From the NCBI GenBank assembly GCA_000092065.1, contig CP000582.1: a stretch of 64,000 nucleotides of DNA, one strand, 5' to 3'. Below the pieces are notes generated by a model. It did no database searches and had not been told where the DNA came from. It saw only the letters and a list, made by a program, of their open reading frames with translations. The stretch's first letter is position 1; each line of letters opens with the position of its first letter. Source of the DNA: Ostreococcus lucimarinus. Taxonomy: Eukaryota. Shown here piece by piece: positions 42,647-57,677 of this stretch. The translations under genes were made by a program, and so were the position numbers.

Positions 42647-45600
42647 GTGACATATGACATCGTATTACAACGTTTTACCCCCACTTCGCAAGGACCGACC
42701 ACCCCATATCCATGTGCTATAAAAGCTAACTCAAAATGGAAGCTCGTACGTCTGAAACGCTTGGCGCTCGAGCGTTTCCGATGTCCGATGTTAACGCGCC
42801 ACAAACCGGAGAGCGTTCAGAATGGTACGCCCCGAAATGAATCACGAATGAGCAATCTAGACACACGCGCTATGTCGAACCCTTACTTTCAGGTCGGGCG
42901 ATGGGACTGCACGGACGAGCTCGAGGGGTGTCAATTCTCCGCGCCACATACGTCGGTGTCAGTTCCTAATTTCGAAGAGATTCAGACCCTTCACTACACC
43001 TGCGTGTATGAAGTGGCGATCACGTGTACACAGCGGCATGATATGCATAACGATGAGTTCGCGCATGTACTTAGTTCTGTCATCGAGCTCGCAAATCGCG
43101 TTGACCTGACACGACTTAGGCAACATCACTCCATAGATAACTTTGCCACACACGTTCTCACTTTTCGGTTCATTCTGGACCTGTTGAGGCAAACTTATCA
43201 GGAATACATCAAAGGAAGCATAGAAAATAATTCGTTTGAGCATGTCGAATTTACTTTCAACAATTGCATGGATGGTACGCACGGAATGGCAACATGCTTT
43301 AAACCGAATAAAAAGCATAGTCACCTTTGTTACATTTTGGATATTTCGCAGGCAGAAAGAAGTTGCAATGGTCGTACTGATGACACAAAATGCGTGCACG
43401 ACAAAATTACTATGAACGATCGCGTTCTTTCCGCGGCTAAGATCCCAGACAACGCAGTGAATAAACAATTCAGTGCTAGTATACTCAATGATGTGTATGG
43501 TTTCGATTCAAGTCTGTTCCATATTTCTCAGTCGGAAACCCTCTGCATGGACCCACAACAACGACTATTACTTCTTGCAGCAGCAGACTTATACCTGAGT
43601 AACACACGTGTTTGTCAACACGACGACTCCTTCTGCGTGCACGTCGGTGTATCGTGGAATGACTTTGAGGAAATTCGCAGAAAGTATAGTGCAGACTTTT
43701 TCTCCACTTATGATTCGACGGGAACATCAATAAGTGTCGCATCGGGTAGAATTGCGTATTATTTTGATTTCAAAGGGTGTGCTGTGACGATTGATACGGC
43801 TTGTTCATCATCTTTGGTTGCGTTGCATCAATCCATGTACGCAGCTGGCTCGCTCCGTGAATCAAGTGCACTTGTATGTGGCATCAACTTGATTTTGACA
43901 ACCACGATGACACATCGATTTCAGCTTGCTGGAATGATGTCTTCAGAGCATCGATGTATGACATTTGATGCACGCGCGGATGGCTACGTCCGGAGTGAGG
44001 CATGCAACATCGTACTCTTACACTTCAATGGCTTCACAAAAACTCATAGGAATGTACTGCGGCATGACGTTCATATGTCATGCGTCGTCAATCAAGATGG
44101 AACATCAACTGGACTTACGGCACCTAATGGAACAGCTCAGCGGAACCTGATGAATGAGTTACTATCGGACGTTTATAACCCTTCAAAACACGTTGGTGCT
44201 AAAATACATGCCCACGGCACAGGTACGCCTCTTGGGGATCCGATAGAGGTGTTTGCTATCAATTCTGCCCTCTCGTTTTCGTCACTGTGCAGGCTGTATG
44301 TGTCAGAAAAGTCGATGCGAGGGCACACAGAACCTGCTTCAGGTCTATGCAGCACCATACTTGCTTTCGTATCAGGTGCACAGTGCAAGCTACATGGTCA
44401 ACCACATTTACAGCAGTTAAACAATCATATACTAACATCGGTTGATGAAAGTATTTTTCAGCGTTCACTGCATTCCAGTTTTCCCTTAACTTCTATGGCG
44501 AGTGTCACCACAGTAAGCTCCTTCGCGTTCCAAGGGACGAACGCAATGGCTTCACTGACATATATCGACAAATGCAGTATTAGAGTGATTCGCAACACGT
44601 CAGGTCTGAGATCTTTGGTCAAGTTGGAGACTGAATCCCCTGTAAGACTCCCGTACACATTTTCTTGCCTTAGCATCGTCAATGGGAAAATGATACAGCT
44701 AACTTCAATGATTCACGACAAAACATTGAAGCGACTTTTGGATCATCGTGTAGCTGATATGCATCTTATGCCAGCCACAGGCCATCTTGAACTTGAAAGA
44801 GAGCTCACGAAGTGCGCTCTCGTAAGGAATGAACCATATCTTCTGACAAAGATCGCATTTATGCTGCCTCTCAAGCTTGATGAAAGCAATCAACTTATCA
44901 CAGAGATGAACACACATGGTCGCTTACGCGTTGGATGTGGCTCTGGCATATCCAATTACTGGTGTAGTACTGCACGACTTCAAATACCAGTAGGACGTGC
45001 CTGGTGCACGGACCGTACTTTTTATCTGACTAGTAAACTCGTTTCTCGGCGTTTCAAAGGTGCGACCGCAACAATAGCAGGGACGACGCCAATTCTCGAT
45101 TCACAAAATGTCGTGAATCCGTGTATCCAGGATGCGAGTCTACAATGCTCTGCATACGTCTTGAACACGTCAGCTTTCGCATCTGATACAACCTACATGG
45201 ACTGCGTATCGTTACTTAAGCTACCAACAACAATTCAAGACGTCATAGTTGTTAATCAGACAGGAAAAATACTTGTTAGATCGACGCATGTTGACATGTT
45301 GCAGAAGACGCAGCATGTGACTGAAAGTAATAACTCTGTCACAAGTAACTCTTCGAGTAACAATAAAACGCAGACATGGATACATCGTTTACTGTGTAAA
45401 GTATCAACCGTACGGATGAAAGCTGGCTTACGCACTCGCACATGCTTGGAACTCGCGAGATTGTTGTACCACGCGAGACAACAAAGAGTGCTGATATCAA
45501 ATATGCAAAACTTGCGTGAAGTAGGCAGTTTACATGCTCCAGAACTGATGCCCATCATGCGCGAAATGGGTCGTAAGTCAATGCAAGATATTAATTCGGC

Positions 45601-48600
45601 TAGTGCCTCTCTTTGCGCGGTTGCGCTGCTGCAGGCTTGCGGCGCTCGTGCGCGCGTTTCCGGCGCCCACGTGCGTGCAAACGACATCGTCCACGAGGAC
45701 GCTTCGGCCGCGCCCGCAGTCTGTGGATCGTGCGTGCGCGCCACCGTGCAATCTTCCGCGCAGGAACGCAGCGAGCCATTGGTGCTGAGTGTCGCGAGCG
45801 CCCCGCACACCGCGCCAGCCCGAGCGTTGCGATCGATCGCCGCCGGGGCGTCGATCGCCGGGGCGCTGTGCGTTGAGCGGCTGCTTCCGGCGTTCGGTCG
45901 CCGGACGCCCGCCGCGTCGCGCGACGGCGCGGCGACGACCACGGCGTCGCCGGCACCGAAAGTCTCGAGCGTGTTCGTGACTGGCGGTCTGGGCGCGTTG
46001 GGTCAGACTTCGGCGGCGTGGTACGCGCATCGAGGCGTTCGCCACGCCTACTTGACTGGTCGCCGCGGGCGCGGAGAGTCCCTTCTGCTGCGATGGTCGT
46101 CGCGCGGCGGTACCGACGTGAGCGCATTGCACGTGCTTCGCGTCGACGCGTGTGCGACCGACGAGGCGTCGTACGGCGGTGCGCGCGCGCACGCGCGCGT
46201 GCGCGCACACGGCGTGCTGCACGCGGGCGGCGTGCTACGCGACTCTTTGACTGCTCGCCAATCCGCGTCGGCCCATCGATACGTGTGGTCGTCCAAAGTA
46301 GTGTCCGCGCACGCATTGCTCCGCCAGTGCGTCGGCGTCGAGCGCGGCGCGCGTCACATCGCGCTGTTCTCGTCGGTGGCGGCGCTGCTGGGGAGTCCAG
46401 GGCAATGCAACTACAGCGCGGCCAACGCCGCGCTGGACGCGCGAGCCGCACACGAGTGGTGCCGCGGGTACGCGGTGCAATCCGTGCAGTGGGGCGCGTG
46501 GGACGGCGCGGGAATGGCGCTGACAAACGCGTCTGTACTCAGGAACGCGCGCACGACAGGCATCGGCGTGCTCGATCCGCAAGCCGGGCTCGGGGCCGTA
46601 CACGTCGCGCTTCAGGGCGCATCAGTGACGGGTCGCTGGCGGGCAATCCAAGGCGTCCTGGCCGTCGTCCCGTTCCAGTGGTCCGTGCTCGCGCGCGCGC
46701 AGCGCTCGCGCGCGCTGATTGCGGAGTACCGCGCGGAGTCGGCGCGGTCGAGCGCTCCAGTCGCCGTCCATCCGGGCGCCGAGGAAGACGCGGCGCGCGA
46801 TGTGTCAGATGAGAGCGTGCGGCAGATCGTGGCCTCCGCCGTGACGCGCGCGCTCGGCAGAGACGTGTCGGTGGACGCGTCGCTCATGGAAGAGGGCCTA
46901 GACTCGCTCGCGGCGGTCGAGCTCGGAGGGGCGTTACAAAAGGAAACGGGCGTGAACATGCCGGCCACGCTGGCATTTGACTACCCGACGATCACCGCGA
47001 TATCTGGGTACCTGAAGGGTGCGATGCTGGCGCGATCGCGTGCGCGCCAATCGAGCGGCGCGGCGTCCAGCGCCGCTCGCACGCGCGCCGCGAGCGGCGC
47101 GGTCGCGCATTCGCGCGACTCGATGCCAGGTATTGCATCCAACGCGCGCGAAATCTTGGGTCTTGCGCCCGTTGTTATGGCCATCAGACGGAGCGTGCGA
47201 CGACTCGACGCGGATGATCGAGAGCCAAAGCCTGCTCGACATGGCGGCTCGGCGTTGTTTTCATCGTTCGTGAGGTGCGTCATGGCAGAGCGAGCCTCTG
47301 AAGATCGCTTCGACACGCCATCGTTGGGCAGGCAGCCGAGCGCGACAGCGCGCGTGGTCTCCTTGACGAAAGCCAGAGATTTCACTACACAAGCTCTCGA
47401 CAGCATGCCGAAATGCAACGAGATTGAGCTGAGCGTCGTCAGCGCTGTGTCGAGTAAGGCATCAGGCGCGCACGATGCCGTGCGTGTGAACAACATGCGA
47501 CATGCGTGCGGCGAAGTGTGTGATCCACAAAGCTCAAAATCGCACGAGTTCGTCGCTCGGCGTCTTGTGCAGTTTGGGTACTTCATCGAGCGCAGCTTGT
47601 TTGACGGGGAGCAGTTCTCCGTAACGGCGCACGAGGCGCGGTTGATGGACCCGCAGCAGCGCGTGCTCCTGGAGAACGCGCTCGCCGCGACGAGTGCGAC
47701 GCCGCACAGCGCGCCGAAGCCAGCCACAGCCGTGTCCGTCGGCGCTTGGACGTCTCAGTACGCAGACATGTGCCGCGTGTACGAGCCAACGCCGGGGCCG
47801 TACTCTGGCGTTGCTTCCGCCTTGAGCGTGCTGTGCGGTCGCGTATCGTACACGTTTGGTATGCGTGGCCCGTCCGTGTGTGTCGACACCGCGTGCTCCT
47901 CCTCGCTCGTGGCCGCGCATGTTGCGAGCTCTCACTTGCGCGATGGATCGTGCGAGGACGCCCTCGTCGCCGGCGTGAGCGTGAACGTCGGCATCGGCAC
48001 CTTCCTCGTGGCCACCGCCGCGAGCATGCTATCGTTCGATGGTCGGTGCAAAACCTTGGATGCCAGCGCCGACGGTTACGCCAAGGGCGAGTGCTGCGTG
48101 GTCCTGCGCGTGTCGGTGGACGGGGCGAGCGCTGGAGCGCCCAAAGCGCCCGATCTTCCAAACGCCGAGTCTCCCTCTCTCGCTCTTCTCGAACAGACCG
48201 GTGTGAACCAGGATGGACGGTCGAGCTCGCTCACCGCACCAAACGGGCCGTCGCAGCAGGCACTCGTGGCCGATGCGCTTCTCCGCTCGGGGCTGCACGG
48301 CGACGCGCTCGGCAGGCTGGAGATGCACGGCACGGGTACTTCGCTGGGAGATCCGATAGAGGTCGGCGCCGCGCTTGAGGTTCTCGCGCCGCCGACGCGC
48401 GCGGACCGGGCGCCGTCCAGGGGCCCCGCGCTCACGCTTGAGGGCGTGAAGCCACGCGCTGGCCACTGCGAACCAGGGGCTGGCGCGGTTGGGTTGCTGT
48501 TTGCGATGGCAAACTTGACGGAGCGAGCCGTCGCGTCCCTCGTCCACCTGCGCCAGCTCAACCCTCACGTCGAGGCCGCGACGCGCCGAAACGCACCGTC

Positions 48601-51600
48601 GCCGCATGCGCGCGCGCCGGTGCTCGCGCGACAAGGCATGCCGCGACCGGATGACGGCGCGTCTGAGGCTGGAGCAGCGGACGCTGCTCGAGCGCGCGTG
48701 CGGCGATCCGGCGTGAGCGGCTTCGCGTTCCAGGGCACAAACGCGCACGCAATCATGGCCCGGGGACCCGGACAGGCGACTGCGCCCGGGTACACGGGAA
48801 GCACGCACACGGCGGCGCGTGCGTGGGAGCGTCAGCGCCACTGGTGCGCGCCAGAACGGCACTGCCTCATCGAGTCCGTGCGCGCTCTGCATCCTCGCGA
48901 GGGAGACTCGAGCGCGTTGGCGCGGTCGTGCGTGCGCCTGTGTCGGTCCGCGTCGCTCGCTGGCATGCTTGATCACGCCGTCGGGCTCCGGACGCTGCTA
49001 CCAGGCACAGCGCACGTCGAGATATGTCGAGCCATGGCGGGCGCGCTGGCAGACCAGCCGCTCGCCGACATCTCGCTGTCGCACGTATCTTTTGCAGCGC
49101 CCCTCGAGCTTCGAGCGCCGACGACCGACGTGCTGTGCGACGTCACGCCGCAAGGCGTGGCCCGCGTGGGCGTGCGCGTGTCGTCGTCCTCTGCCGCCGC
49201 GCCGTTCCTCGCGGGCGCGCTCAGCCGCAGAAGCGCCTCAAGAATTACTGCGTCTCCGGCGCACCTCTCGCGAGGACCGGCGATGCCCGCGCTGGACGTG
49301 CAGCCTTGTGTTCACGGCGCGAGCTGGCTGCGCTCGTCGCAGCGACGAGGCCCGGGCGCGGAGCACCGCGTGTACGGCGACATACGCGCGCGTCAGATGT
49401 CCACGCTGTCGGCTGCGGCGTATCACTCGCCGCCCGCAGTGCTCGATGCCGCGCTGCACGCGCTCAGCGCGTGCGCGCCGCCGCCGGGTAGCGATGCGAC
49501 AGAAGAGAGCCCGCACGTCCCGGCCACGATCGGCGGCGTCCGCACGCGAGGCGGGCACTCGGACATATACCGCGCCCGGTTCGCGCTCGCGACGGCTCCG
49601 CCTGAGCGCGGGGAGCGGAACGCGTCCACGCGCAGATCTCGTCACCACCTGTGGGACTGGTCGAGTCTTTCGGCGGCGCATCGAGGGTGCGTGGTGCACG
49701 CGCTGGAGTCTCGACGACTCGGTGGCGCCGCGGTCGTGCGCTCGCGAGCACAACAGCGCTCGAGGGCACCGCCGCCGCGTCGCGCGGCCGCGCCGCGTGT
49801 GCTTTATGGAGTCGGGCAACAGCGCGCGTGCGGCGCGGCGGATGGCCAGGGCGCGCGTCGACGCTCAACCCTCAACTCGCAGTGCTTTGTGGACGACGCG
49901 TCGCACCGCCGCGAGCTGATGGAGACCCACGCGTCACCATCGATCGCGCAAGGCAGCACGCGAAGCAGCACGCGCGCCTCTCTTTGCGCGGTTGCGCTGC
50001 TGCAGGCTTGCGGCGCTCGTGCGCGCGTTTCCGGCGCCCACGTGCGTGCAAACGACATCGTCCACGAGGACGCTTCGGCCGCGCCCGCAGTCTGTGGATC
50101 GTGCGTGCGCGCCACCGTGCAGTCTTCCGCGCAGGAACGCAGCGAGCCATTGGTGCTGAGTGTCGCGAGCGCCCCGCACACCGCGCCAGCCCGAGCGTTG
50201 CGATCGATCGCCGCCGGGGCGTCGATCGCCGGGGCGCTGTGCGTTGAGCGTCTGCTTCCGACGTTCGGTCGCCGGACGCCCGCCGCGTCGCGCGACGGCG
50301 CGGCGACGACCACGGCGTCGCCGGCACCGAAAGTCTCGAGCGTGTTCGTGACTGGCGGTCTGGGCGCGTTGGGTCAGACTTCGGCGGCGTGGTACGCGCA
50401 TCGAGGCGTTCGCCACGCCTACTTGACTGGTCGCCGCGGGCGCGGAGAGTCCCTTCTGCTGCGATGGTCGTCGCGCGGCGGTACCGACGTGAGCGCATTG
50501 CACGTGCTTCGCGTCGACGCGTGTGCGACCGACGAGGCGTCGTACGGCGGTGCGCGCGCGCACGCGCGCGTGCGCGCACACGGCGTGCTGCACGCGGGCG
50601 GCGTGCTACGCGACTCTTTGACTGCTCGCCAATCCGCGTCGGCCCATCGATACGTGTGGTCGTCCAAAGTAGTGTCCGCGCACGCATTGCTCCGCCAGTG
50701 CGTCGGCGTCGAGCGCGGCGCGCGTCACATCGCGCTGTTCTCGTCGGTGGCGGCGCTGCTGGGGAGTCCAGGGCAATGCAACTACAGCGCGGCCAACGCC
50801 GCGCTGGACGCGCGAGCCGCACACGAGTGGTGCCGCGGGTACGCGGTGCAATCCGTGCAGTGGGGCGCGTGGGACGGCGCGGGAATGGCGCTGACAAACG
50901 CGTCTGTACTCAGGAACGCGCGCACGACAGGCATCGGCGTGCTCGATCCGCAAGCCGGGCTCGGGGCCGTACACGTCGCGCTTCAGGGCGCATCAGTGAC
51001 GGGTCGCTGGCGGGCAATCCAAGGCGTCCTGGCCGTCGTCCCGTTCCAGTGGTCCGTGCTCGCGCGCGCGCAGCGCTCGCGCGCGCTGATTGCGGAGTAC
51101 CGCGCGGAGTCGGCGCGGTCGAGCGCTCCAGTCGCCGTCCATCCGGGCGCCGAGGAAGACGCGGCGCGCGATGTGTCAGATGAGAGCGTGCGGCAGATCG
51201 TGGCCTCCGCCGTGACGCGCGCGCTCGGCAGAGACGTGTCGGTGGACGCGTCGCTCATGGAAGAGGGCCTAGACTCGCTCGCGGCGGTCGAGCTCGGAGG
51301 GGCGTTACAAAAGGAAACGGGCGTGAACATGCCGGCCACGCTGGCATTTGACTACCCGACGATCACCGCGATATCTGGGTACCTGAAGGGTGCGATGCTG
51401 GCGCGATCGCGTGCGCGCCAATCGAGCGGCGCGGCGTCCAGCGCCGCTCGCACGCGCGCCGCGAGCGGCGCGGTCGCGCATTCGCGACGTACAACCATTA
51501 CTCAGCTCCCTCGTCTACGTCTATCATACGTTCCGCATGAAGTCAGCCGACGAACGACTCTTGGCATTAGCGGTCAATATTCTCACGAGCTTAGACACTT

Positions 51601-54600
51601 TAGCTCTGCGGGACCTTCGACCAGTAACTTTGAGGGAGTCCTCTTTGTTCGCATTCATAACTCCACCAAGCCCTTACCCGTGCATCCATATTTCATTGGC
51701 AACTTTTTGCGTTGTGACGAACTCGAGTTCGGCTTGTTTGGCGCACCGCACAGCGAATGGACTACTCTGGACGCGCGGCAGATTCTCTTGATTGAGAGTG
51801 TACACACTATCCAGCTGAACAACAGTTCAGACGTTTCATTGCGCACTCTAGAGACGACGGCTGTTCTTGTTGGAGCACAAGCGGTAGATTCAACTGACGA
51901 GCATAGCGTTGAGATACAGTACAACGCCTACTCTGGCGTTGCTTCCGCCTTGAGCGTGCTGTGCGGTCGCGTATCGTACACGTTTGGTATGCGTGGCCCG
52001 TCCGTGTGTGTCGACACCGCGTGCTCCTCCTCGCTCGTGGCCGCGCATGTTGCGAGCTCTCACTTGCGCGATGGATCGTGCGAGGACGCCCTCGTCGCCG
52101 GCGTGAGCGTGAACGTCGGCATCGGCACCTTCCTCGTGGCCACCGCCGCGAGCATGCTATCGTTCGATGGTCGGTGCAAAACCTTGGATGCCAGCGCCGA
52201 CGGTTACGCCAAGGGCGAGTGCTGCGTGGTCCTGCGCGTGTCGGTGGACGGGGCGAGCGCTGGAGCGCCCAAAGCGCCCGATCTTCCAAACGCCGAGTCT
52301 CCCTCTCTCGCTCTTCTCGAACAGACCGGTGTGAACCAGGATGGACGGTCGAGCTCGCTCACCGCACCAAACGGGCCGTCGCAGCAGGCACTCGTGGCCG
52401 ATGCGCTTCTCCGCTCGGGGCTGCACGGCGACGCGCTCGGCAGGCTGGAGATGCACGGCACGGGTACTTCGCTGGGAGATCCGATAGAGGTCGGCGCCGC
52501 GCTTGAGGTTCTCGCGCCGCCGACGCGCGCGGACCGGGCGCCGTCCAGGGGCCCCGCGCTCACGCTTGAGGGCGTGAAGCCACGCGCTGGCCACTGCGAA
52601 CCAGGGGCTGGCGCGGTTGGGTTGCTGTTTGCGATGGCAAACTTGACGGAGCGAGCCGTCGCGTCCCTCGTCCACCTGCGCCAGCTCAACCCTCACGTCG
52701 AGGCCGCGACGCGCCGAAACGCACCGTCGCCGCATGCGCGCGCGCCGGTGCTCGCGCGACAAGGCATGCCGCGACCGGATGACGGCGCGTCTGAGGCTGG
52801 AGCAGCGGACGCTGCTCGAGCGCGCGTGCGGCGATCCGGCGTGAGCGGCTTCGCGTTCCAGGGCACAAACGCGCACGCAATCATGGCCCGGGGACCCGGA
52901 CAGGCGACTGCGCCCGGGTACACGGGAAGCACGCACACGGCGGCGCGTGCGTGGGAGCGTCAGCGCCACTGGTGCGCGCCAGAACGGCACTGCCTCATCG
53001 AGTCCGTGCGCGCTCTTCATCCTCGCGAGGGAGACTCGAGCGCGTTGGCGCGGTCGTGCGTGCGCCTGTGTCGGTCCGCGTCGCTCGCTGGCATGCTTGA
53101 TCACGCCATCGGGCTCCGGACGCTACTACCAGGCACAGCGCACGTCGAGATATGTCGAGCCATGGCGGGCGCGCTGGCAGACCAGCCGCTCGCCGACATC
53201 TCGCTGTCGCACGTATCTTTTGCAGCGCCCCTCGAGCTTCGAGCGCCGACGACCGACGTGCTGTGCGACGTCACGCCGCAAGGCGTGGCCCGCGTGGGCG
53301 TGCGCGTGTCGTCGTCCTCTGCCGCCGCGCCGTTCCTCGCGGGCGCGCTCAGCCGCAGAAGCGCCTCAAGAATTACTGCGTCTCCGGCGCACCTCTCGCG
53401 AGGACCGGCGATGCCCGCGCTGGACGTGCAGCCTTGTGTTCACGGCGCCATCAGACGGAGCGTGCGACGACTCGACGCGGATGATCGAGAGCCAAAGCCT
53501 GCTCGACATGGCGGCTCGGCGTTGTTTTCATCGTTCGTGAGGTGCGTCATGGCAGAGCGAGCCTCTGAAGATCGCTTCGACACGCCATCGTTGGGCAGGC
53601 AGCCGAGCGCGACAGCGCGCGTGGTCTCCTTGACGAAAGCCAGAGATTTCACTACACAAGCTCTCGACAGCATGCCGAAATGCAACGAGATTGAGCTGAG
53701 CGTCGTCAGCGCTGTGTCGAGTAAGGCATCAGGCGCGCACGATGCTGTGCGTGTGAACAACATGCGACATGCGTGCGGCGAAGTGTGTGATCCACAAAGC
53801 TCAAAATCGCACGAGTTCGTCGCTCGGCATCTTGTGCAGTTTGGGTACTTCATCGAGCGCAGCTTGTTTGACGGGGAGCAGTTCTCCGTAACGGCGCACG
53901 AGGCGCGGTTGATGGACCCGCAGCAGCGCGTGCTCCTGGAGAACGCGCTCGCCGCGACGAGCGCGACGCCGCACAGCGCGCCGAAGCCAGCCACAGCCGT
54001 GTCCGTCGGCGCTTGGACGTCTCAGTACGCAGACATGTGCCGCGTGTACGAGCCAACGCCGGGGCCGTACTCTGGCGTTGCTTCCGCCTTGAGCGTGCTG
54101 TGCGGTCGCGTATCGTACACGTTTGGTATGCGTGGCCCGTCCGTGTGTGTCGACACCGCGTGCTCCTCCTCGCTCGTGGCCGCGCATGTTGCGAGCTCTC
54201 ACTTGCGCGATGGATCGTGCGAGGACGCCCTCGTCGCCGGCGTGAGCGTGAACGTCGGCATCGGCACCTTCCTCGTGGCCACCGCCGCGAGCATGCTATC
54301 GTTCGATGGTCGGTGCAAAACCTTGGATGCCAGCGCCGACGGTTACGCCAAGGGCGAGTGCTGCGTGGTCCTGCGCGTGTCGGTGGACGGGGCGAGCGCT
54401 GGAGCGCCCAAAGCGCCCGATCTTCCAAACGCCGAGTCTCCCTCTCTCGCTCTTCTCGAACAGACCGGTGTGAACCAGGATGGACGGTCGAGCTCGCTCA
54501 CCGCACCAAACGGGCCGTCGCAGCAGGCACTCGTGGCCGATGCGCTTCTCCGCTCGGGGCTGCACGGCGACGCGCTCGGCAGGCTGGAGATGCACGGCAC

Positions 54601-56623
54601 AGGTACTTCGCTGGGAGATCCGATAGAGGTCGGCGCCGCGCTTGAGGTTCTCGCGCCGCCGACGCGCGCGGACCGGGCGCCGTCCAGGCCCCCCGCGCTC
54701 ACGCTTGAGGGCGTGAAGCCACGCGCTGGCCACTGCGAACCAGGGGCTGGCGCGGTTGGGTTGCTGTTTGCGATGGCAAACTTGACGGAGCGAGCCGTCG
54801 CGTCCCTCGTCCACCTGCGCCAGCTCAACCCTCACGTCGAGGCCGCGACGCGCCGAAACGCACCGTCGCCGCATGCGCGCGCGCCGGTGCTCGCGCGACA
54901 AGGCATGCCGCGACCGGATGACGGCGCGTCTGAGGCTGGAGCAGCGGACGCTGCTCGAGCGCGCGTGCGGCGATCCGGCGTGAGCGGCTTCGCGTTCCAG
55001 GGCACAAACGCGCACGCAATCATGGCCCGGGGACCCGGACAGGCGACTGCGCCCGGGTACACGGGAAGCACGCACACGGCGGCGCGTGCGTGGGAGCGTC
55101 AGCGCCACTGGTGCGCGCCAGAACGGCACTGCCTCATCGAGTCCGTGCGCGCTCTTCATCCTCGCGAGGGAGACTCGAGCGCGTTGGCGCGGTCGTGCGT
55201 GCGCCTGTGTCGGTCCGCGTCGCTCGCTGGCATGCTTGATCACGCCATCGGGCTCCGGACGCTACTACCAGGCACAGCGCACGTCGAGATATGTCGAGCC
55301 ATGGCGGGCGCGCTGGCAGACCAGCCGCTCGCCGACATCTCGCTGTCGCACGTATCTTTTGCAGCGCCCCTCGAGCTTCGAGCGCCGACGACCGACGTGC
55401 TGTGCGACGTCACGCCGCAAGGCGTGGCCCGCGTGGGCGTGCGCGTGTCGTCGTCCTCTGCCGCCGCGCCGTTCCTCGCGGGCGCGCTCAGCCGCAGAAG
55501 CGCCTCAAGAATTACTGCGTCTCCGGCGCACCTCTCGCGAGGACCGGCGATGCCCGCGCTGGACGTGCAGCCTTGTGTTCACGGCGCGAGCTGGCTGCGC
55601 TCGTCGCAGCGACGAGGCCCGGGCGCGGAGCACCGCGTGTACGGCGACATACGCGCGCGTCAGATGTCCACGCTGTCGGCTGCGGCGTATCACTCGCCGC
55701 CCGCAGTGCTCGATGCCGCGCTGCACGCGCTCAGCGCGTGCGCGCCGCCGCCGGGTAGCGATGCGACAGAAGAGAGCCCGCACGTCCCGGCCACGATCGG
55801 CGGCGTCCGCACGCGAGGCGGGCACTCGGACATGTACCGCGCCCGGTTCGCGCTCGCGACGGCTCCGCCTGAGCGCGGGGAGCGGAACGCGTCCACGCGC
55901 AGATCTCGTCACCACCTGTGGGACTGGTCGAGTCTTTCGGCGGCGCATCGAGGGTGCGTGGTGCACGCGCTGGAGTCTCGACGACTCGGTGGCCTCACGA
56001 CGAATTCATTTTATCATAGCTTTACGTCTACGCAGGCATATAAGTTGGCTCATATTCCACGGCCAGACATCCTATCGCAGTCTTTCACTTCAATGAAGAC
56101 TATAAATGCTGTCGACAAAGCTAGCAGCACATTTACAGAACGCAGTAGTGATGCGATGGAAATTGTTAACGCCGTGCAACGCGAGATTTTGGAAATTTTA
56201 TCAACATTAACGACCAGTCCTGTAAGTTTAGATGATACACTTGCGAGCCACGGATTGGACTCACTGGGCATTGCATATTTTTTTATTCAAGTTGGCAAAC
56301 GGTTCAATGTTGAAGTGACTGTTGACAGTCTTGGCACGAACACCACAGTCAGTAGTATAGTGCATCAGATATCACAGATGCTTAGTGCAAGGGTGATTTT
56401 CCTACACACCAAGGACCTGGTGCGCGAGCGAAAAGCCGACAGCTCCTCAAGAAGAGGAAGGAGCACTGCGATCACATCGATGGTGTCTGCATACCGTCGA
56501 CACTTGCAGTCAACTGAATTCGAGCCCAAAGCCTGTTTTGCAAGAGGCGTACTTGCTTGCGCAATATTTACTATATTTATCATTGCGTACGGATATCACG
56601 CACACAGATTCGACATGTTTTAG
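42647..56623 (+). CDS. Giant modular type I polyketide synthase, apparently AT-less: (N-term unknown)-KS-DH-KR-ACP-KS-DH-KR-ACP-KS-DH(truncated)-KS-DH-ACP-TM helix; 4658 aa, single ORF
   Basis: 4x KS (DTACSSSL Cys, HGTGT, G-H). 4x DH-like (LLDHRVADMHLMP / MLDHA[VI]GLRTLLP, plus NPCIQDASLQ / AVLDAALHA). 2x KR (VFVTGGLGALGQ ... GQCNYSAANAALDA). 3x ACP (EEGLDSLAAVEL x2, SHGLDSLGIAYF). I could find no GHSxG/AFHS acyltransferase signature, and the KS-to-DH linkers are only ~28 aa. The first in-frame Met is 42647; a later Met start is possible. Confidence 0.9.
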   Translation: MTYDIVLQRFTPTSQGPTTPYPCAIKANSKWKLVRLKRLALERFRCPMLTRHKPESVQNGTPRNESRMSNLDTRAMSNPYFQVGRWDCTDELEGCQFSAPHTSVSVPNFEEIQTLHYTCVYEVAITCTQRHDMHNDEFAHVLSSVIELANRVDLTRLRQHHSIDNFATHVLTFRFILDLLRQTYQEYIKGSIENNSFEHVEFTFNNCMDGTHGMATCFKPNKKHSHLCYILDISQAERSCNGRTDDTKCVHDKITMNDRVLSAAKIPDNAVNKQFSASILNDVYGFDSSLFHISQSETLCMDPQQRLLLLAAADLYLSNTRVCQHDDSFCVHVGVSWNDFEEIRRKYSADFFSTYDSTGTSISVASGRIAYYFDFKGCAVTIDTACSSSLVALHQSMYAAGSLRESSALVCGINLILTTTMTHRFQLAGMMSSEHRCMTFDARADGYVRSEACNIVLLHFNGFTKTHRNVLRHDVHMSCVVNQDGTSTGLTAPNGTAQRNLMNELLSDVYNPSKHVGAKIHAHGTGTPLGDPIEVFAINSALSFSSLCRLYVSEKSMRGHTEPASGLCSTILAFVSGAQCKLHGQPHLQQLNNHILTSVDESIFQRSLHSSFPLTSMASVTTVSSFAFQGTNAMASLTYIDKCSIRVIRNTSGLRSLVKLETESPVRLPYTFSCLSIVNGKMIQLTSMIHDKTLKRLLDHRVADMHLMPATGHLELERELTKCALVRNEPYLLTKIAFMLPLKLDESNQLITEMNTHGRLRVGCGSGISNYWCSTARLQIPVGRAWCTDRTFYLTSKLVSRRFKGATATIAGTTPILDSQNVVNPCIQDASLQCSAYVLNTSAFASDTTYMDCVSLLKLPTTIQDVIVVNQTGKILVRSTHVDMLQKTQHVTESNNSVTSNSSSNNKTQTWIHRLLCKVSTVRMKAGLRTRTCLELARLLYHARQQRVLISNMQNLREVGSLHAPELMPIMREMGRKSMQDINSASASLCAVALLQACGARARVSGAHVRANDIVHEDASAAPAVCGSCVRATVQSSAQERSEPLVLSVASAPHTAPARALRSIAAGASIAGALCVERLLPAFGRRTPAASRDGAATTTASPAPKVSSVFVTGGLGALGQTSAAWYAHRGVRHAYLTGRRGRGESLLLRWSSRGGTDVSALHVLRVDACATDEASYGGARAHARVRAHGVLHAGGVLRDSLTARQSASAHRYVWSSKVVSAHALLRQCVGVERGARHIALFSSVAALLGSPGQCNYSAANAALDARAAHEWCRGYAVQSVQWGAWDGAGMALTNASVLRNARTTGIGVLDPQAGLGAVHVALQGASVTGRWRAIQGVLAVVPFQWSVLARAQRSRALIAEYRAESARSSAPVAVHPGAEEDAARDVSDESVRQIVASAVTRALGRDVSVDASLMEEGLDSLAAVELGGALQKETGVNMPATLAFDYPTITAISGYLKGAMLARSRARQSSGAASSAARTRAASGAVAHSRDSMPGIASNAREILGLAPVVMAIRRSVRRLDADDREPKPARHGGSALFSSFVRCVMAERASEDRFDTPSLGRQPSATARVVSLTKARDFTTQALDSMPKCNEIELSVVSAVSSKASGAHDAVRVNNMRHACGEVCDPQSSKSHEFVARRLVQFGYFIERSLFDGEQFSVTAHEARLMDPQQRVLLENALAATSATPHSAPKPATAVSVGAWTSQYADMCRVYEPTPGPYSGVASALSVLCGRVSYTFGMRGPSVCVDTACSSSLVAAHVASSHLRDGSCEDALVAGVSVNVGIGTFLVATAASMLSFDGRCKTLDASADGYAKGECCVVLRVSVDGASAGAPKAPDLPNAESPSLALLEQTGVNQDGRSSSLTAPNGPSQQALVADALLRSGLHGDALGRLEMHGTGTSLGDPIEVGAALEVLAPPTRADRAPSRGPALTLEGVKPRAGHCEPGAGAVGLLFAMANLTERAVASLVHLRQLNPHVEAATRRNAPSPHARAPVLARQGMPRPDDGASEAGAADAARARVRRSGVSGFAFQGTNAHAIMARGPGQATAPGYTGSTHTAARAWERQRHWCAPERHCLIESVRALHPREGDSSALARSCVRLCRSASLAGMLDHAVGLRTLLPGTAHVEICRAMAGALADQPLADISLSHVSFAAPLELRAPTTDVLCDVTPQGVARVGVRVSSSSAAAPFLAGALSRRSASRITASPAHLSRGPAMPALDVQPCVHGASWLRSSQRRGPGAEHRVYGDIRARQMSTLSAAAYHSPPAVLDAALHALSACAPPPGSDATEESPHVPATIGGVRTRGGHSDIYRARFALATAPPERGERNASTRRSRHHLWDWSSLSAAHRGCVVHALESRRLGGAAVVRSRAQQRSRAPPPRRAAAPRVLYGVGQQRACGAADGQGARRRSTLNSQCFVDDASHRRELMETHASPSIAQGSTRSSTRASLCAVALLQACGARARVSGAHVRANDIVHEDASAAPAVCGSCVRATVQSSAQERSEPLVLSVASAPHTAPARALRSIAAGASIAGALCVERLLPTFGRRTPAASRDGAATTTASPAPKVSSVFVTGGLGALGQTSAAWYAHRGVRHAYLTGRRGRGESLLLRWSSRGGTDVSALHVLRVDACATDEASYGGARAHARVRAHGVLHAGGVLRDSLTARQSASAHRYVWSSKVVSAHALLRQCVGVERGARHIALFSSVAALLGSPGQCNYSAANAALDARAAHEWCRGYAVQSVQWGAWDGAGMALTNASVLRNARTTGIGVLDPQAGLGAVHVALQGASVTGRWRAIQGVLAVVPFQWSVLARAQRSRALIAEYRAESARSSAPVAVHPGAEEDAARDVSDESVRQIVASAVTRALGRDVSVDASLMEEGLDSLAAVELGGALQKETGVNMPATLAFDYPTITAISGYLKGAMLARSRARQSSGAASSAARTRAASGAVAHSRRTTITQLPRLRLSYVPHEVSRRTTLGISGQYSHELRHFSSAGPSTSNFEGVLFVRIHNSTKPLPVHPYFIGNFLRCDELEFGLFGAPHSEWTTLDARQILLIESVHTIQLNNSSDVSLRTLETTAVLVGAQAVDSTDEHSVEIQYNAYSGVASALSVLCGRVSYTFGMRGPSVCVDTACSSSLVAAHVASSHLRDGSCEDALVAGVSVNVGIGTFLVATAASMLSFDGRCKTLDASADGYAKGECCVVLRVSVDGASAGAPKAPDLPNAESPSLALLEQTGVNQDGRSSSLTAPNGPSQQALVADALLRSGLHGDALGRLEMHGTGTSLGDPIEVGAALEVLAPPTRADRAPSRGPALTLEGVKPRAGHCEPGAGAVGLLFAMANLTERAVASLVHLRQLNPHVEAATRRNAPSPHARAPVLARQGMPRPDDGASEAGAADAARARVRRSGVSGFAFQGTNAHAIMARGPGQATAPGYTGSTHTAARAWERQRHWCAPERHCLIESVRALHPREGDSSALARSCVRLCRSASLAGMLDHAIGLRTLLPGTAHVEICRAMAGALADQPLADISLSHVSFAAPLELRAPTTDVLCDVTPQGVARVGVRVSSSSAAAPFLAGALSRRSASRITASPAHLSRGPAMPALDVQPCVHGAIRRSVRRLDADDREPKPARHGGSALFSSFVRCVMAERASEDRFDTPSLGRQPSATARVVSLTKARDFTTQALDSMPKCNEIELSVVSAVSSKASGAHDAVRVNNMRHACGEVCDPQSSKSHEFVARHLVQFGYFIERSLFDGEQFSVTAHEARLMDPQQRVLLENALAATSATPHSAPKPATAVSVGAWTSQYADMCRVYEPTPGPYSGVASALSVLCGRVSYTFGMRGPSVCVDTACSSSLVAAHVASSHLRDGSCEDALVAGVSVNVGIGTFLVATAASMLSFDGRCKTLDASADGYAKGECCVVLRVSVDGASAGAPKAPDLPNAESPSLALLEQTGVNQDGRSSSLTAPNGPSQQALVADALLRSGLHGDALGRLEMHGTGTSLGDPIEVGAALEVLAPPTRADRAPSRPPALTLEGVKPRAGHCEPGAGAVGLLFAMANLTERAVASLVHLRQLNPHVEAATRRNAPSPHARAPVLARQGMPRPDDGASEAGAADAARARVRRSGVSGFAFQGTNAHAIMARGPGQATAPGYTGSTHTAARAWERQRHWCAPERHCLIESVRALHPREGDSSALARSCVRLCRSASLAGMLDHAIGLRTLLPGTAHVEICRAMAGALADQPLADISLSHVSFAAPLELRAPTTDVLCDVTPQGVARVGVRVSSSSAAAPFLAGALSRRSASRITASPAHLSRGPAMPALDVQPCVHGASWLRSSQRRGPGAEHRVYGDIRARQMSTLSAAAYHSPPAVLDAALHALSACAPPPGSDATEESPHVPATIGGVRTRGGHSDMYRARFALATAPPERGERNASTRRSRHHLWDWSSLSAAHRGCVVHALESRRLGGLTTNSFYHSFTSTQAYKLAHIPRPDILSQSFTSMKTINAVDKASSTFTERSSDAMEIVNAVQREILEILSTLTTSPVSLDDTLASHGLDSLGIAYFFIQVGKRFNVEVTVDSLGTNTTVSSIVHQISQMLSARVIFLHTKDLVRERKADSSSRRGRSTAITSMVSAYRRHLQSTEFEPKACFARGVLACAIFTIFIIAYGYHAHRFDMF
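43480..44560 (+). other. PKS KS1 domain (AT-moderate composition)
   Basis: FDSSLFHISQSETLCMDPQQRLLL; TIDTACSSSLVALHQS (Cys codon near 43801); HAHGTGTPLGDPIE; SMRGHTEPASG; SSFAFQGTNAMASL. Confidence 0.85.
44600..45290 (+). other. PKS DH1 domain (AT-moderate composition)
   Basis: LLDHRVADMHLMPATGHLE (the HxxxGxxxxP variant with D) and NPCIQDASLQ (the DxxxQ motif). Confidence 0.65.
45960..46560 (+). other. PKS KR1 catalytic subdomain (GC-rich, repeat A copy 1)
   Basis: VFVTGGLGALGQTSAAWYAHRG; FSSVAALLGSPGQCNYSAANAALDA. Confidence 0.8.
46817..47013 (+). other. PKS ACP1
   Basis: VRQIVASAVTRALG..SLMEEGLDSLAAVELGGALQ..LAFDYPTITAISGYL. Confidence 0.85.
47560..48757 (+). other. PKS KS2 (GC-rich, repeat B copy 1)
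   Basis: FDGEQFSVTAHEARLMDPQQRVLLE; VCVDTACSSSLVAAHVA; EMHGTGTSLGDPIE; PRAGHCEPGAG; SGFAFQGTNAHAIM. Confidence 0.85.
48840..49726 (+). other. PKS DH2 (complete)
   Basis: MLDHAVGLRTLLPGTAHVE and YHSPPAVLDAALHALS. Confidence 0.65.
49976..51486 (+). repeat. PKS intragenic repeat A, copy 2
   Basis: See copy 1. Confidence 0.92.
50331..51384 (+). other. PKS KR2 + ACP2 (repeat A copy 2, offset +4371 from KR1/ACP1)
   Basis: Translation is identical to KR1/ACP1 except for LLPAFG->LLPTFG upstream. Confidence 0.85.
51684..52885 (+). other. PKS KS3, chimeric: divergent AT-moderate N-terminal part (to 51928) fused in-frame to GC-rich repeat B from 51929
   Basis: HPYFIGNFLRCDELEFGLFGAPHSEWTTLDARQILLIESV aligns with FGYFIERSLFDGEQFSVTAHEARLMDPQQRVLLENA of KS2/KS4. 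From Y|SGVASALS onward the sequence is identical to KS2/KS4. Confidence 0.8.
51929..53448 (+). repeat. PKS intragenic repeat B, partial copy 2 (1520 bp, from mid-KS to mid-DH)
   Basis: See copy 1. Both ends fall inside domains. Confidence 0.92.
52968..53448 (+). other. PKS DH3, truncated after the first half at the repeat junction (lacks the LDAALH half)
   Basis: MLDHAIGLRTLLP is present. At ..QPCVHGA|IRRSVRRLD the sequence jumps directly into the inter-module linker of repeat B copy 3. Confidence 0.7.
53447..55993 (+). repeat. PKS intragenic repeat B, copy 3
   Basis: See copy 1. It abuts partial copy 2 with a 2-bp microhomology (gc). Confidence 0.92.
53827..55993 (+). other. PKS KS4 + DH4 (repeat B copy 3, offset +6267 from KS2/DH2)
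   Basis: The motifs are the same as in KS2/DH2. Substitutions seen: ARRLVQ->ARHLVQ, SRGPAL->SRPPAL, DHAVG->DHAIG, HSDIY->HSDMY. Confidence 0.85.
56154..56385 (+). other. PKS terminal ACP3 (AT-moderate composition)
   Basis: AMEIVNAVQREILEIL..LDDTLASHGLDSLGIAYFFIQVGKRF..IVHQISQML. Confidence 0.8.
56531..56600 (+). other. C-terminal hydrophobic helix of the PKS (putative membrane anchor)
   Basis: ACFARGVLACAIFTIFIIAYGY is followed by HAHRFDMF and the stop. No thioesterase or reductase release domain is present. Confidence 0.5.
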
Positions 56624-56798: not shown

Positions 56799-57677
56799 AT
56801 GCCGAGGCGCACATCATTAGCCAACGGCAGCTCGCTGTACGACGGGTTGCGATTTAAGTCGAGCGGGTTCAAGCGTTCGGGCAGGAAAGTGAACTTTTAC
56901 ACGTGTAGTACGATCGACGACTCGGACAGAAACGCGTCCTCGACGGGGAGATGCACGTTCGAGGCGGAGATCCGGCACAGAGCCGCGACGGACGAGTACT
57001 TCATCACCAAGTACGTCGGCCATTCGTTCGGTTGCACCGCGCTCTCGCCCCACATCGACGGGGAAACGCGAGCCGAGCTCGTCGATGACGTGCAAATGCA
57101 AGCCATATCCCTGCAACGAGGTCGCGTCGCTGTACAATCGTGTATCGATTACGTGTTCCGGCGCTACTCGTACGTCGTCGACGAAGCGCCGGCTGCGTCG
57201 TTACTTCAGTGCGTGCGGCGACGAAGTTCGGTGGCCACTCGCAGAGAGGCTCTTAAGCGCTTCGCTCAGACGAAAGTGCGATCGAAATTACAGGGCGAAC
57301 TCATGACCTGCATCGCGCACTCGCGCCAAGTCATAACCTCGTTGAGCCTGACCGAACGCCCGACGTCACGCGACATTCGAAAGTATTATCATGTGTTCGG
57401 ATTGCTGCACACGCACTGCAGTCGTCTTCCGGAGTTCGACTCGCTCGCAACCGTATGGATGGCCGCAGATACGACTAGCAGCGCCGCGCTCATTCATGCG
57501 CTCGAGCTCGGCATCAAAAAATTCGACAACGCACTGCGCACCGTTCGCCCCGCGACTGCCTCACAAACTGAAGCCTTGCACAACGCTCACGGCCATCTTC
57601 CTCCTTACGATCTCAGTGAAGCCGAGGCGTTGACGGCTCTTCGTAGTATAGCGCGTTCTGCCCAAACACGTTCGTAG
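56799..57677 (+). CDS. GC-rich intronless orphan protein with N-terminal WRKY/FLYWCH/FAR1-like zinc-finger signature (possibly transposon-derived)
   Basis: YDGLRFKSSGFKRSGRKVNFYTCS...GRCTFEAEIRH...YFITKYVGHSFGC fits the beta-strand C..C...H.(H/C) pattern of WRKY-GCM1 superfamily DNA-binding domains. The rest of the protein has no recognisable family. An imperfect hairpin lies at 57690-57714, just after the stop. Confidence 0.4.
   Translation: MPRRTSLANGSSLYDGLRFKSSGFKRSGRKVNFYTCSTIDDSDRNASSTGRCTFEAEIRHRAATDEYFITKYVGHSFGCTALSPHIDGETRAELVDDVQMQAISLQRGRVAVQSCIDYVFRRYSYVVDEAPAASLLQCVRRRSSVATRREALKRFAQTKVRSKLQGELMTCIAHSRQVITSLSLTERPTSRDIRKYYHVFGLLHTHCSRLPEFDSLATVWMAADTTSSAALIHALELGIKKFDNALRTVRPATASQTEALHNAHGHLPPYDLSEAEALTALRSIARSAQTRS

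Follow-up and report, generated by a model that had tools for sequence, protein, structure and literature searches.

HINTW on the avian W is an ampliconic sex-chromosome gene with GC-biased intrachromosomal conversion. The human Y palindromes are multi-copy sequences which lie in a GC-poor non-recombining region, are kept near-identical by intrachromosomal conversion and are richer in GC than their single-copy surroundings (PMC3723533, PMC5591018). For bacterial assembly-line polyketide synthases (PKSs), concerted evolution and gene conversion among the modules have been described (PMC8256042, PMC1592344, PMC4256081). In Ostreococcus, a low-GC outlier region is a candidate non-recombining mating-type locus, where GC3 has been read as the age of residence without recombination; genes of this region with paralogues outside it tend to a higher GC3, interpreted as recent translocation, and for O. 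tauri a genome GC of 0.60 is discussed against a mutational equilibrium of 0.36 (PMC8557840). In addition, passages of a recent preprint describe giant PKS genes, the BOC1 hypervariable PKS genes of the Mamiellales, as a conserved but structurally hypervariable feature of the outlier region (bioRxiv 10.1101/2025.04.21.649811).

The gene analysed here shares with these last its class, its compartment and the strain CCE9901. The window, i.e. the whole 64-kb stretch of DNA that was analysed, belongs to chromosome 2 (895,087 bp) of Ostreococcus lucimarinus CCE9901, whose proteins are matched exactly, and lies within the low-GC outlier or candidate mating-type region of that chromosome (PMC8557840; passages of bioRxiv 10.1101/2025.04.21.649811). 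By Pfam, the order of the PKS domains is KS1-DH1, KR-ACP, KS2-DH, KR-ACP, KS3-DH (N-terminal half), KS4-DH, ACP and a hydrophobic C-terminus, and the reading frame is kept across all junctions over 13.8 kb. The NCBI model XP_001416177.1 (4526 aa) starts at 43043; gene calls made on environmental contigs begin at 42788. The gene and its parts are as follows.

42788..56623, + strand: type I PKS gene, AT-less by Pfam (uninterrupted open reading frame, Pfam domains)
42788..45604, + strand: single-copy low-GC 5' part (KS1-DH1), GC 0.452, GC3 0.443, with no internal repeat
45605..47115, + strand: repeat A1 (KR-ACP), GC-rich, 99.8% identical to 49976-51486, GC 0.711, GC3 0.80
47116..47179, + strand: segment x, a 64-bp piece of ACP-KS linker (repeat map, composition)
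47180..49726, + strand: repeat B1 (linker, canonical KS N-terminus with MDPQQR, KS core, DH), 99.6% identical to 53447-55993
49727..49975, + strand: segment y, DH-KR inter-module linker, single copy in this allele and GC-rich, GC 0.727, GC3 0.77
49976..51486, + strand: repeat A2 (KR-ACP), differing from A1 at 3 sites
51487..51928, + strand: the island, ACP-KS linker and start of the KS3 N-terminal domain, GC 0.498, GC3 0.497
51929..53446, + strand: repeat B' (KS3 core and N-terminal half of DH), equal to B positions 622-2141
53447..55993, + strand: repeat B2 (linker, KS4, DH), directly abutting B' with a 2-bp overlap
55994..56623, + strand: single-copy low-GC 3' tail (terminal ACP and hydrophobic C-terminus), GC 0.445, GC3 0.445, with a PP-binding match

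The GC-rich block (45605-55993) consists of module repeats that are 99.6 to 100% identical, KR-ACP being present twice and KS-DH two and a half times, with only about 20 variable sites among the copies. Specifically, B' is a mosaic, B1-like at B positions 1155, 1243 and 1244 and B2-like at positions 1710, 1801 and 1818, and it contains the catalytic motifs DTACSSS, HGTGT and GHCEPGAG. Because B2 is joined straight to B', module 3 has neither KR nor ACP of its own. Segment x and B positions 1-621 fill the place that in module 3 is taken by the island, the sole piece of the repeated modules with no partner copy in the gene. As in bacterial assembly-line PKSs, modules are far more alike within the synthase (99.6-100%) than between species (62-72%), identity breaks off inside domains and one copy combines the variants of the others; unlike those systems, this is a eukaryotic gene of a green alga, located in a non-recombining low-GC region, with about 30 points of GC3 between homogenised and unhomogenised tracts. 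No GRINS-type intense GC skew was found in the block (absolute GC skew at most about 0.15).

An earlier note, made from the letters alone, had pointed to a low-GC island inside the GC-rich block, and the computed composition bears this out. The island has a GC of 0.498 (GC1/2/3 = 0.565/0.435/0.497), corresponding to z = -5.5 relative to the remainder of the block 45605-55993, taken in all its 442-bp windows (mean GC 0.693, sd 0.036, minimum 0.577). The GC3 of the block segments is 0.72-0.80 (within B1, 0.725 in the first 621 nt and 0.777 in the remainder), that of the 3' tail (55994-56620) is 0.445 and that of neighbouring genes 0.41-0.50; the window background has a GC of 0.455 (sd 0.027), and the GC of the island is reached by 8% of background windows. 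The GC profile along the gene is not smooth, showing sharp edges at all four boundaries: over the 120 bp to the left and right, GC is 0.42/0.70 at 45605, 0.75/0.48 at 51487, 0.49/0.64 at 51929 and 0.69/0.42 at 55994. Repeat identity ends exactly at the two island edges, the outer block edges likewise fall where it ends, and the GC3 partition tracks the repeat map, with about 0.44-0.50 in unhomogenised parts and 0.72-0.80 in homogenised ones. The low-GC flanks, previously taken to have the composition of the surrounding genome, do not: since the window lies in a low-GC outlier region and the genome as a whole has a reported GC of about 0.60, this "AT-moderate host" composition is a regional anomaly. 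Elsewhere in the window, GC is also elevated in a polymorphic transposon block and in a single-copy open reading frame.

The island comprises a module-specific ACP-KS linker (about 76 aa) and the first ~71 residues of the KS3 N-terminal domain, with a degenerate LDARQI motif where the canonical type has MDPQQR. It is genuine coding sequence, as had been supposed, the coding frame having no stops in 147 codons and the other two frames 12 and 4, and XP_001416177.1 is translated straight through it. The Pfam PF00109 match begins at island residue 77 and extends into the GC-rich part; KS3 is a chimera in both composition (GC 0.498 vs 0.69 in the block) and sequence, and the conversion (homogenisation) boundary proposed earlier does fall inside the KS domain. 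The switch between YNAY and SGVASALS is indeed abrupt, the first 300 nt from 51929 being 100% identical to those from 47801 and 54068, and identity to the other B copies being 99.7% over about 1520 nt. The alignment of the island with the KS2/KS4 N-terminus, also claimed, proved positional only (BLASTP E = 0.25 vs KS2/4), and BLASTP against KS1 gave no significant match (E = 2.7). Judged by sequence comparison, the island is a different, old type of N-terminus, and not a diverged copy of that of KS2/KS4.

Its only significant homologue is the linker/KS N-terminus of the O. tauri outlier-region PKS XP_022840662.1 (E = 5e-8); its gene, OT_ostta02g00180, is listed among the outlier-region genes. 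In O. tauri, a conserved GARP-rich KR-ACP is followed by a divergent GARP-poor linker/KS N-terminus and by a conserved GARP-rich KS core: identity to O. lucimarinus is 70-90% over KR-ACP, 20-35% over 51407-51916 and about 80% from 51917, and in the same order the GARP/FYMINK of the O. tauri protein passes from 0.39/0.09 to 0.22/0.21 and then to 0.36/0.09. Because this arrangement is the same, we infer as ancestral state a mosaic of low and high GC that most likely predates the O. tauri-O. lucimarinus split, amino-acid composition serving as a proxy for the O. tauri DNA. Residence of the modules in the low-GC region probably goes back to before the split, and their high GC3 would then need an active maintaining force. 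As at the mating-type locus in general (PMC8557840), the single-copy parts of the PKS have a low GC3, judged by the neighbouring genes of the window; here, unlike there, high and low GC3 occur within one gene with boundaries sharp to ~100 bp, and age of residence alone fails to explain the pattern, since O. tauri has a homologue of the high-GC part in its own mating-type region. The GC-rich modules are closest to Mamiellales PKSs, namely those of O. tauri (62-72% aa identity), of Ostreococcus-like environmental contigs (58-67%) and of Bathycoccus (50%), and the best named bacterial match has 38%. Among the best 120 module matches no recent donor was found, none lying between 67% and 99% identity, and those at ~99% all come from this PKS locus.

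The reading that we favour, and regard as moderately probable, is that concerted evolution of the module cores ends where homology ends, GC-biased conversion keeping the cores GC-rich inside a non-recombining outlier region. The cores flanking the island (KR-ACP upstream, KS core-DH downstream) would be homogenised by ongoing unequal recombination and gene conversion; because no other part of the gene is homologous to the island, homogenisation would halt at both its edges, leaving it to evolve alone and fast, as its O. tauri counterpart does. The unhomogenised KS1-DH1, island and ACP tail would take on the GC3 of the non-recombining region, and the high GC of the cores would come from GC-biased mismatch repair in inter-module conversion, offsetting AT-biased mutation pressure. 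GC-biased conversion had been suggested earlier as an origin of the GC-rich type; it stands as the most plausible source and plausibly keeps the cores GC-rich, while the bias itself and its causal role are what we infer. In a back-of-envelope Moran-type model with n interconverting copies, the GC-over-AT fixation ratio would be r^(n-1), and the mutation bias from the literature, taken with r ~2 and n = 3-4, would give an equilibrium GC3 of ~0.7-0.85. The likeness to the Y palindromes is that of multi-copy, near-identical, GC-richer sequence in a GC-poor non-recombining region; the differences are that the copies are here tandem modules within one open reading frame of a haploid alga, with a putative GC bias of conversion, and that the GC contrast far exceeds the one reported there.

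Some observations count against this favoured reading. Segment y is single-copy in this allele and yet GC-rich, and KR-ACP has only two copies and yet the highest GC3, both of which need a past with more copies; moreover, the gene just downstream (56799-57677) has a GC3 of 0.68 without being repeated. Of the 8 changes that B2 alone has relative to the consensus of environmental copies, 5 go from GC to AT, which shows mutation pressure, not conversion bias. Homogenisation alone is insufficient for a high GC3, because the PKS module repeats of an unrelated low-GC alga (L027) are 99.9% identical with a GC3 of 0.335 vs 0.330 in unique parts, and because the Bathycoccus homologues are not GARP-rich.

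The overwriting scenario of the earlier note, extended to a module 3 that was at first wholly low-GC until an invading GC-rich type recently overwrote it on either side and left the island as the last remnant, appears unlikely. Near-100% identity to the other modules reaches right to the island edges, the island has the composition of the gene's other single-copy parts, and the environmental contigs, which carry segment x after both A copies and run A-x-B without the island, are readable as fully overwritten alleles; however, these are short-read contigs in which both repeat copies are identical, and may be collapsed-repeat traversals. The scenario also implies once-low-GC flanks, a version seen nowhere, and by the amino-acid proxy O. 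tauri already has the conserved GARP-rich KR-ACP and KS core around an island-like segment.

Somewhat more doubtful is a young stratum, i.e. GC-rich modules that a PKS paralogue on a normal-GC chromosome recently donated to the outlier-region gene, by a move or by ectopic conversion, and that have not yet decayed. The GC3 trend of translocated mating-type-region genes cited above (PMC8557840), the further type I PKS genes on standard chromosomes of O. tauri (PMC5498103) and the other GC-elevated patches of the window agree with it, but no sequence 70-98% identical is present among the best 120 module matches, and the homologous arrangement, island-type segment included, occurs in the O. tauri outlier region.

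We consider it improbable that the PKS block is a cryptic spot of recombination or conversion between MT+ and MT- haplotypes, with population-level GC-biased conversion there and not in the diverged single-copy parts. With a GC3 of 0.78-0.80, the block equals or exceeds what would be expected of the recombining genome, a level that conversion among 2-3 copies within the gene would attain only with a strong bias, and passages of bioRxiv 10.1101/2025.04.21.649811 report outlier-region PKS genes for both O. tauri mating types; against this, all recovered contigs have MT- type flanks.

That the block is foreign DNA, inserted in frame from a bacterium, a virus or another eukaryote, the other origin suggested earlier, is very improbable in spite of its sharp edges and of a GC of 0.70, above even the genome mean of ~0.60, given the Mamiellales relatives, the 38% of the best named bacterial match and an architecture that Bathycoccus shares, in which repeated KS modules of the VCVDTACSSSLVA type come after a distinct KS1. 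Equally improbable is an artefact, either a reference misassembly or the unspliced intron that the earlier note had named: the island does sit between near-identical repeats, is missing from several metagenome contigs and was not found in any JGI metagenome contig, but the frame is intact and free of stops, exact removal of 442 nt (not a multiple of 3) throws KS3 out of frame, the junction of the A end with the island recurs independently in ENA contig L029, which carries the island at nt 1-407 and has its own 9-bp indel, and the homologous O. tauri sequence, at the same position, is translated, as is the island in the NCBI annotation.

In the searched passages of bioRxiv 10.1101/2025.04.21.649811, neither a GC mosaic inside the gene, nor the island, nor a link to conversion is described. 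According to the same passages, CpG methylation and MNase signal are both elevated over the coding regions of PKS genes, which would fit a GC-rich, standard-genome-like block. Structural variants of the PKS between strains are also visible in the environmental contigs.

The separase, STN7-type kinase, Utp6 and Harbinger-type transposase ORFs of the window match exactly proteins of O. lucimarinus CCE9901, and the remaining ORFs are typical eukaryotic housekeeping genes; an exact-sequence lookup of the PKS translated from the ATG at 42788 did not retrieve that exact form among database proteins. Previous studies assigned CCE9901 to the minus mating type and named, as a candidate non-recombining mating-type locus, the low-GC portion of the big outlier chromosome, which is chromosome 2 in Ostreococcus; GC there is about 9-17% below that of the rest of the chromosome (PMC8557840; PMC5498103). 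For O. tauri, a genome GC of 0.60 has been discussed against a mutational equilibrium of 0.36, with the difference ascribed to GC-biased gene conversion (PMC8557840). The window background of 0.455 is consistent with the low-GC outlier region, so that the surroundings of the gene, described in the earlier note as AT-moderate like the rest of the genome, are a regional anomaly and not the genome norm.

The gene encodes a type I PKS in a single ORF (42647/42788-56623, plus strand), in which Pfam matches four KS, four DH N-terminal, two KR and three ACP domains; no acyltransferase domain was detected by the Pfam scan of 42788-56623, which makes the enzyme AT-less. At the C-terminus an ACP precedes a hydrophobic stretch, ACFARGVLACAIFTIFIIAYGY, which looks like a membrane anchor. 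Comparison of the gene with itself resolved the repeats and single-copy segments reported below, together with their composition.

Segments of the PKS gene and its surroundings
42788-45604, plus strand: 5' part of the gene, GC 0.452, GC3 0.443
45605-55993, plus strand: GC-rich block, segments with GC 0.62-0.73 and GC3 0.72-0.80 (segment x left out)
45605-47115, plus strand: A1, KR-ACP repeat, 99.8% identical to A2
47116-47179, plus strand: single-copy linker segment x, 64 bp, GC 0.56, GC3 0.57
47180-49726, plus strand: B1, repeat of linker, KS and DH, 99.6% identical to B2
49727-49975, plus strand: single-copy linker segment y
49976-51486, plus strand: A2, KR-ACP repeat, 99.8% identical to A1
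51487-51928, plus strand: single-copy island, GC 0.498, GC3 0.497
51929-53448, plus strand: B', partial copy corresponding to B positions 622-2141
53447-55993, plus strand: B2, repeat of linker, KS and DH, 99.6% identical to B1
55994-56620, plus strand: 3' tail, GC 0.445, GC3 0.445
56799-57677, plus strand: single-copy ORF of 292 aa just downstream of the PKS, GC 0.58, GC3 0.68
Neighbouring genes: GC3 0.41-0.50

In modules 2 and 4, segment x and the first 621 nt of B sit where module 3 carries the island; the two alternatives, of 685 and 442 nt respectively, are both 1 mod 3, and the frame is therefore kept. B' is joined directly to B2, which leaves module 3 with KS3 and half a DH but neither a KR nor an ACP of its own. 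Both island edges coincide exactly with the ends of repeat identity. The abrupt switch noticed in the earlier note is thus exact, and its conversion boundary inside KS3 holds, as identity to the other modules ends at the island edge within the KS domain.

The GC of the island lies 5.5 standard deviations below that of all 442-bp windows of the block (z = -5.5; mean 0.693, sd 0.036, minimum 0.577), and at all four edges the composition changes sharply, within 120 bp. The low-GC island, initially spotted by eye, is therefore borne out by the computed GC and GC3 and precisely located. Within the same ORF, GC3 is 0.72-0.80 in the repeats against 0.44-0.50 in the single-copy parts, the pattern looked for under GC-biased gene conversion. 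Intense GC/AT skew of the GRINS type was not seen: in 200-nt windows the GC skew of the block does not exceed about +/-0.15, and the AT skew falls to -0.43 at the start of every KS core, but in sequence poor in A/T.

The island frame contains no stop in 147 codons, compared with 12 and 4 in the other two frames, and the NCBI model XP_001416177.1 is translated through it. KS3 (51488-53446) is recognised as a KS domain by PF00109 (E = 1.3e-33, residues 77-249) and PF02801 (E = 4.4e-21), with a PF00109 score 28 bits lower than that of KS2; the island by itself gave no PF00109 match. As the PF00109 match starts at island residue 77, about 71 island residues fall within the KS fold, and the preceding 76 or so are part of the ACP-KS linker. 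The catalytic Cys-His-His motifs DTACSSS, HGTGT and GHCEPGAG are all found, all within the GC-rich part of KS3, and the N-terminal MDPQQR motif is degenerate in the island (LDARQI). Exact excision of 442 nt, being 1 mod 3, would shift the frame, and a spliceosomal intron is therefore rejected, also in view of the open frame and of the protein-level homology to O. tauri. Judged from the open frame, the PF00109 overlap, the NCBI model and that homology, the island is real coding sequence, as previously proposed.

In the environmental contig L029 (ENA ERZ27284477 k141_662492), the end of A runs into 348 nt of island sequence with no mismatch, and A has a private 9-bp indel; the A-island junction thus exists outside the reference assembly. 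An apparent second island/KS junction in this contig was rejected as an Illumina TruSeq adapter chimera (26-nt match at nt 397-422). The chimera was seeded by AGTTCAGACGT within the island, a sequence shared with 11 nt of the adapter; reads that have not been trimmed can therefore yield a spurious island/KS junction when this locus is assembled.

The island had been described as a diverged but alignable KS2/KS4 N-terminus; our comparisons do not support this, since neither the similarity to KS2/KS4 (E = 0.25) nor that to KS1 (E = 2.7) is significant. A HMMER search among 1.84 billion representative proteins returned no match at E <= 1e-3. The island is too divergent for a database of that size, and only small-database or pairwise comparisons are therefore informative. 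In such a comparison, the corresponding segment of the O. tauri PKS protein XP_022840662.1 (KR-ACP-KS, partial) matched the island with E = 5e-8 (64 residues, 34% identical). The two share departures from the canonical motif: where KS2/4 have MDPQQRVLLENA, the island has LDARQILLIESV and O. tauri has LNVQQLMLIETV. Relative to O. tauri, module 3 is 70-90% identical in the KR-ACP, 20-35% over 51407-51916 and about 80% from 51917 onwards. The GARP/FYMINK fractions, an amino-acid proxy for composition, follow the same course in the two proteins: 0.39/0.09, then 0.22/0.21, then 0.36/0.09 along XP_022840662.1, and 0.43/0.08 in the KR-ACP (A), 0.22/0.18 in the island and 0.49/0.06 in the B core of O. 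lucimarinus. The gene of XP_022840662.1, OT_ostta02g00180, is listed among the O. tauri outlier-region genes.

The other N-terminus type, with the canonical MDPQQR of KS2/KS4, is also old: an environmental Ostreococcus-like contig carries a relative that is 50% identical over that segment. On these comparisons, the two KS N-terminus types are older than the species, and the arrangement of conserved core, island-type segment and conserved core is most simply taken as ancestral. The overwriting of a low-GC module suggested in the earlier note, taken as a recent event, does not hold, as by amino-acid composition the same arrangement occurs in O. tauri. A distinct first KS followed by repeated VCVDTACSSSLVA-type KS modules is common to the O. 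lucimarinus PKS and Bathycoccus. Metagenome scans with the island and with the O. tauri island-like segment returned no match. A word-indexed protein search also gave none, but the same search missed an exact 198-aa substring of XP_022840662.1, and its negatives are not evidence of absence; the idea that the island is missing from public data was rejected, as XP_001416177.1, a non-representative cluster member, contains it.

As for the origin of the GC-rich modules, a search with the KS-DH unit (B) found matches of about 99% in one cluster only, whose named members are this locus in the reference and in metagenomes. The next matches were O. tauri (62% to the KS unit and 72% to the KR-ACP, for which the comparison was with the retrieved proteins), environmental contigs (58-67%) and Bathycoccus (50%); the best named bacterial match reached 38%. 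Foreign DNA, left as an option by the first reading, is not supported, the top non-self matches being O. tauri, Ostreococcus-like contigs and Bathycoccus. The protein search with the B unit revealed no recent donor, and the relatives L026, L028 (environmental contigs) and P0069 were rejected as donors, being only 58-68% identical. A recent translocation is the usual reading in the field for high-GC3 genes in the mating-type locus (PMC8557840); here, the protein search found no close paralogue outside the mating-type region, and in O. tauri the outlier region already holds the homologue OT_ostta02g00180, so that this explanation seems unlikely.

By contrast with the 62-72% amino-acid identity to O. 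tauri, module copies within the gene are 99.6-100% identical, as in concerted evolution. In addition, B' is a mosaic, matching B1 at B positions 1155/1243/1244 and B2 at 1710/1801/1818; the sites are few, but they show directly that the copies exchange sequence. In conclusion, the module cores are homogenised, one copy is recombinant, homogenisation ends where homology ends, and composition is partitioned likewise. Concerted evolution of modules is well documented in bacterial PKSs (PMC8256042, PMC1592344, PMC4256081), and the ampliconic and palindromic genes of Y (PMC3723533, PMC5591018) and W chromosomes offer a parallel for GC-rich interconverting copies in a non-recombining region.

Homologous modules occur in the low-GC region of two species, with cores only 62-72% identical. 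Sequence in a non-recombining, AT-drifting region would not be expected to hold a GC3 of about 0.8 without an active force, for which GC-biased repair is the obvious candidate; acting during inter-module conversion, such repair would maintain the observed GC3. According to a Moran-type argument of our own, a GC3 of about 0.7-0.85 would be reached, given the published mutation bias, if 3-4 copies interconvert and repair favours GC roughly two-fold; two copies would be insufficient. We tentatively propose, without yet holding it to be probable, that tandem modules in the non-recombining mating-type region escape AT decay via strongly GC-biased conversion, either between modules or with the haplotype of the other mating type, giving a block with GC 0.70, at or above the genome value of about 0.60, and edges at the end of homology. 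Exchange with the opposite haplotype may be regarded as a variant of the conversion reading.

The composition of the O. tauri protein, by the amino-acid proxy, is consistent with recurrence of the pattern; Bathycoccus homologues are not GARP-rich. Among the weak points of the conversion reading are that segment y and the KR-ACP are now at low copy number, yet GC-rich, and that the single-copy ORF at 56799-57677 has high GC3 without repeats. Only about 20 sites vary among the copies, and the private changes of B2, mostly GC to AT against the environmental-copy consensus, are as mutation would produce. A further repeated PKS was considered as an independent replicate.

L027 (ENA ERZ10645735 contig_14208), 4987-17205: PKS of an alga with flanks of GC about 0.36, module repeats 99.6-99.9% identical

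In its repeats total GC rises by about 10 points and GC3 is unchanged (0.335 vs 0.330). The difference is in amino-acid composition only, and with GC3 flat L027 gives no support to a rule that repeats are GC-rich. Among other repeats sought in the window for the GC-enrichment test, only a 90-bp inverted repeat was found.

Metagenome contigs 99.9% identical to the window are present in many samples. Several break off some 140 nt inside A1, as contigs are expected to do at a repeat, and others run from the sequence preceding A through A-x-B-y-A-x-B to the tail. Contigs L012-L017 are of the A-x-B type; the L012 product, of 3979 aa, equals the reference with x in place of the island and B'. No short-read contig shows a difference between its two repeat copies, so that these traversals may be collapsed. 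For this reason, and because L029 has the end of A followed by the island, which is thus present in at least one ENA sample, absence of the island from wild strains was rejected. We can conclude only that the PKS locus would appear structurally polymorphic, or is not resolved in metagenomes. A preprint describes hypervariable PKS loci in the outlier region (bioRxiv 10.1101/2025.04.21.649811), in agreement with a variable locus here.

Two processes already known, homogenisation of PKS modules and the rise in GC of copies that interconvert within non-recombining regions, are combined here in a new setting; in the literature searched we found no description of the GC mosaic inside this gene. The low-GC outlier regions of Mamiellales are explained by the loss of recombination-linked GC-biased conversion, argued so far from chromosome-scale correlations. 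This locus provides an internal contrast within one ORF, exchanging stretches having a GC3 of about 0.8 and non-exchanging ones of about 0.45, with boundaries sharp to about 100 bp. If biased conversion is the cause, the locus permits its direct test and measurement, and the gene would be a natural, internally controlled gauge of its strength in a haploid marine alga. It would also help to explain the persistence of giant PKS genes in these regions, and would tie the hypervariable structure reported for PKS genes of the outlier region to their composition and chromatin. In terms of PKS biology, the unit made up of ACP-KS linker and KS N-terminus is specific to its module and resists homogenisation, which bears on where natural recombination points lie.

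Other structural features were recorded. In the environmental contig L006/L016 (JGI 3300047157, 360 kb), window 44837-45604 is missing, at the cost of a net frameshift, and B position 1996 is followed directly by window 56238; these deletions may be further PKS structural variants or assembly errors. L026 (JGI 3300046169 Ga0494224_6240) is 8336 bp long, exactly two 4168-bp PKS module units that are 99.66% identical and contain frameshifts; its GC is 0.62, its nucleotide identity to repeat B is 68%, and it probably represents tandem modules of a related Ostreococcus-like PKS, assembled from long reads as a loop. Upstream of the PKS, the following were mapped.

35430-40598: transposon-associated block of 5.17 kb, GC 0.52-0.57, with XPG-like and Harbinger/PIF ORFs
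36446-38239, plus strand: Harbinger/PIF DDE_Tnp_4 transposase ORF, inside the block
38231-40354, minus strand: XPG-like ORF, inside the block
35429-35518 and 36192-36279: arms of the 90-bp inverted repeat, 97.8% identical

The block is replaced by 61 bp in the environmental contigs L008-L011 and retained in L006 and L007; as judged from these contigs, it is a transposon-associated insertion polymorphism in wild O. lucimarinus. The first arm of the inverted repeat begins exactly at the left edge of this insertion, and the two arms could delimit, as terminal repeats, a small nested element some 850 bp long. Finally, the 292-aa ORF, for which no Pfam match was found, is conserved in 13 environmental contigs and represents a second GC-elevated patch of the low-GC region, whose GC is not explained by repeats.
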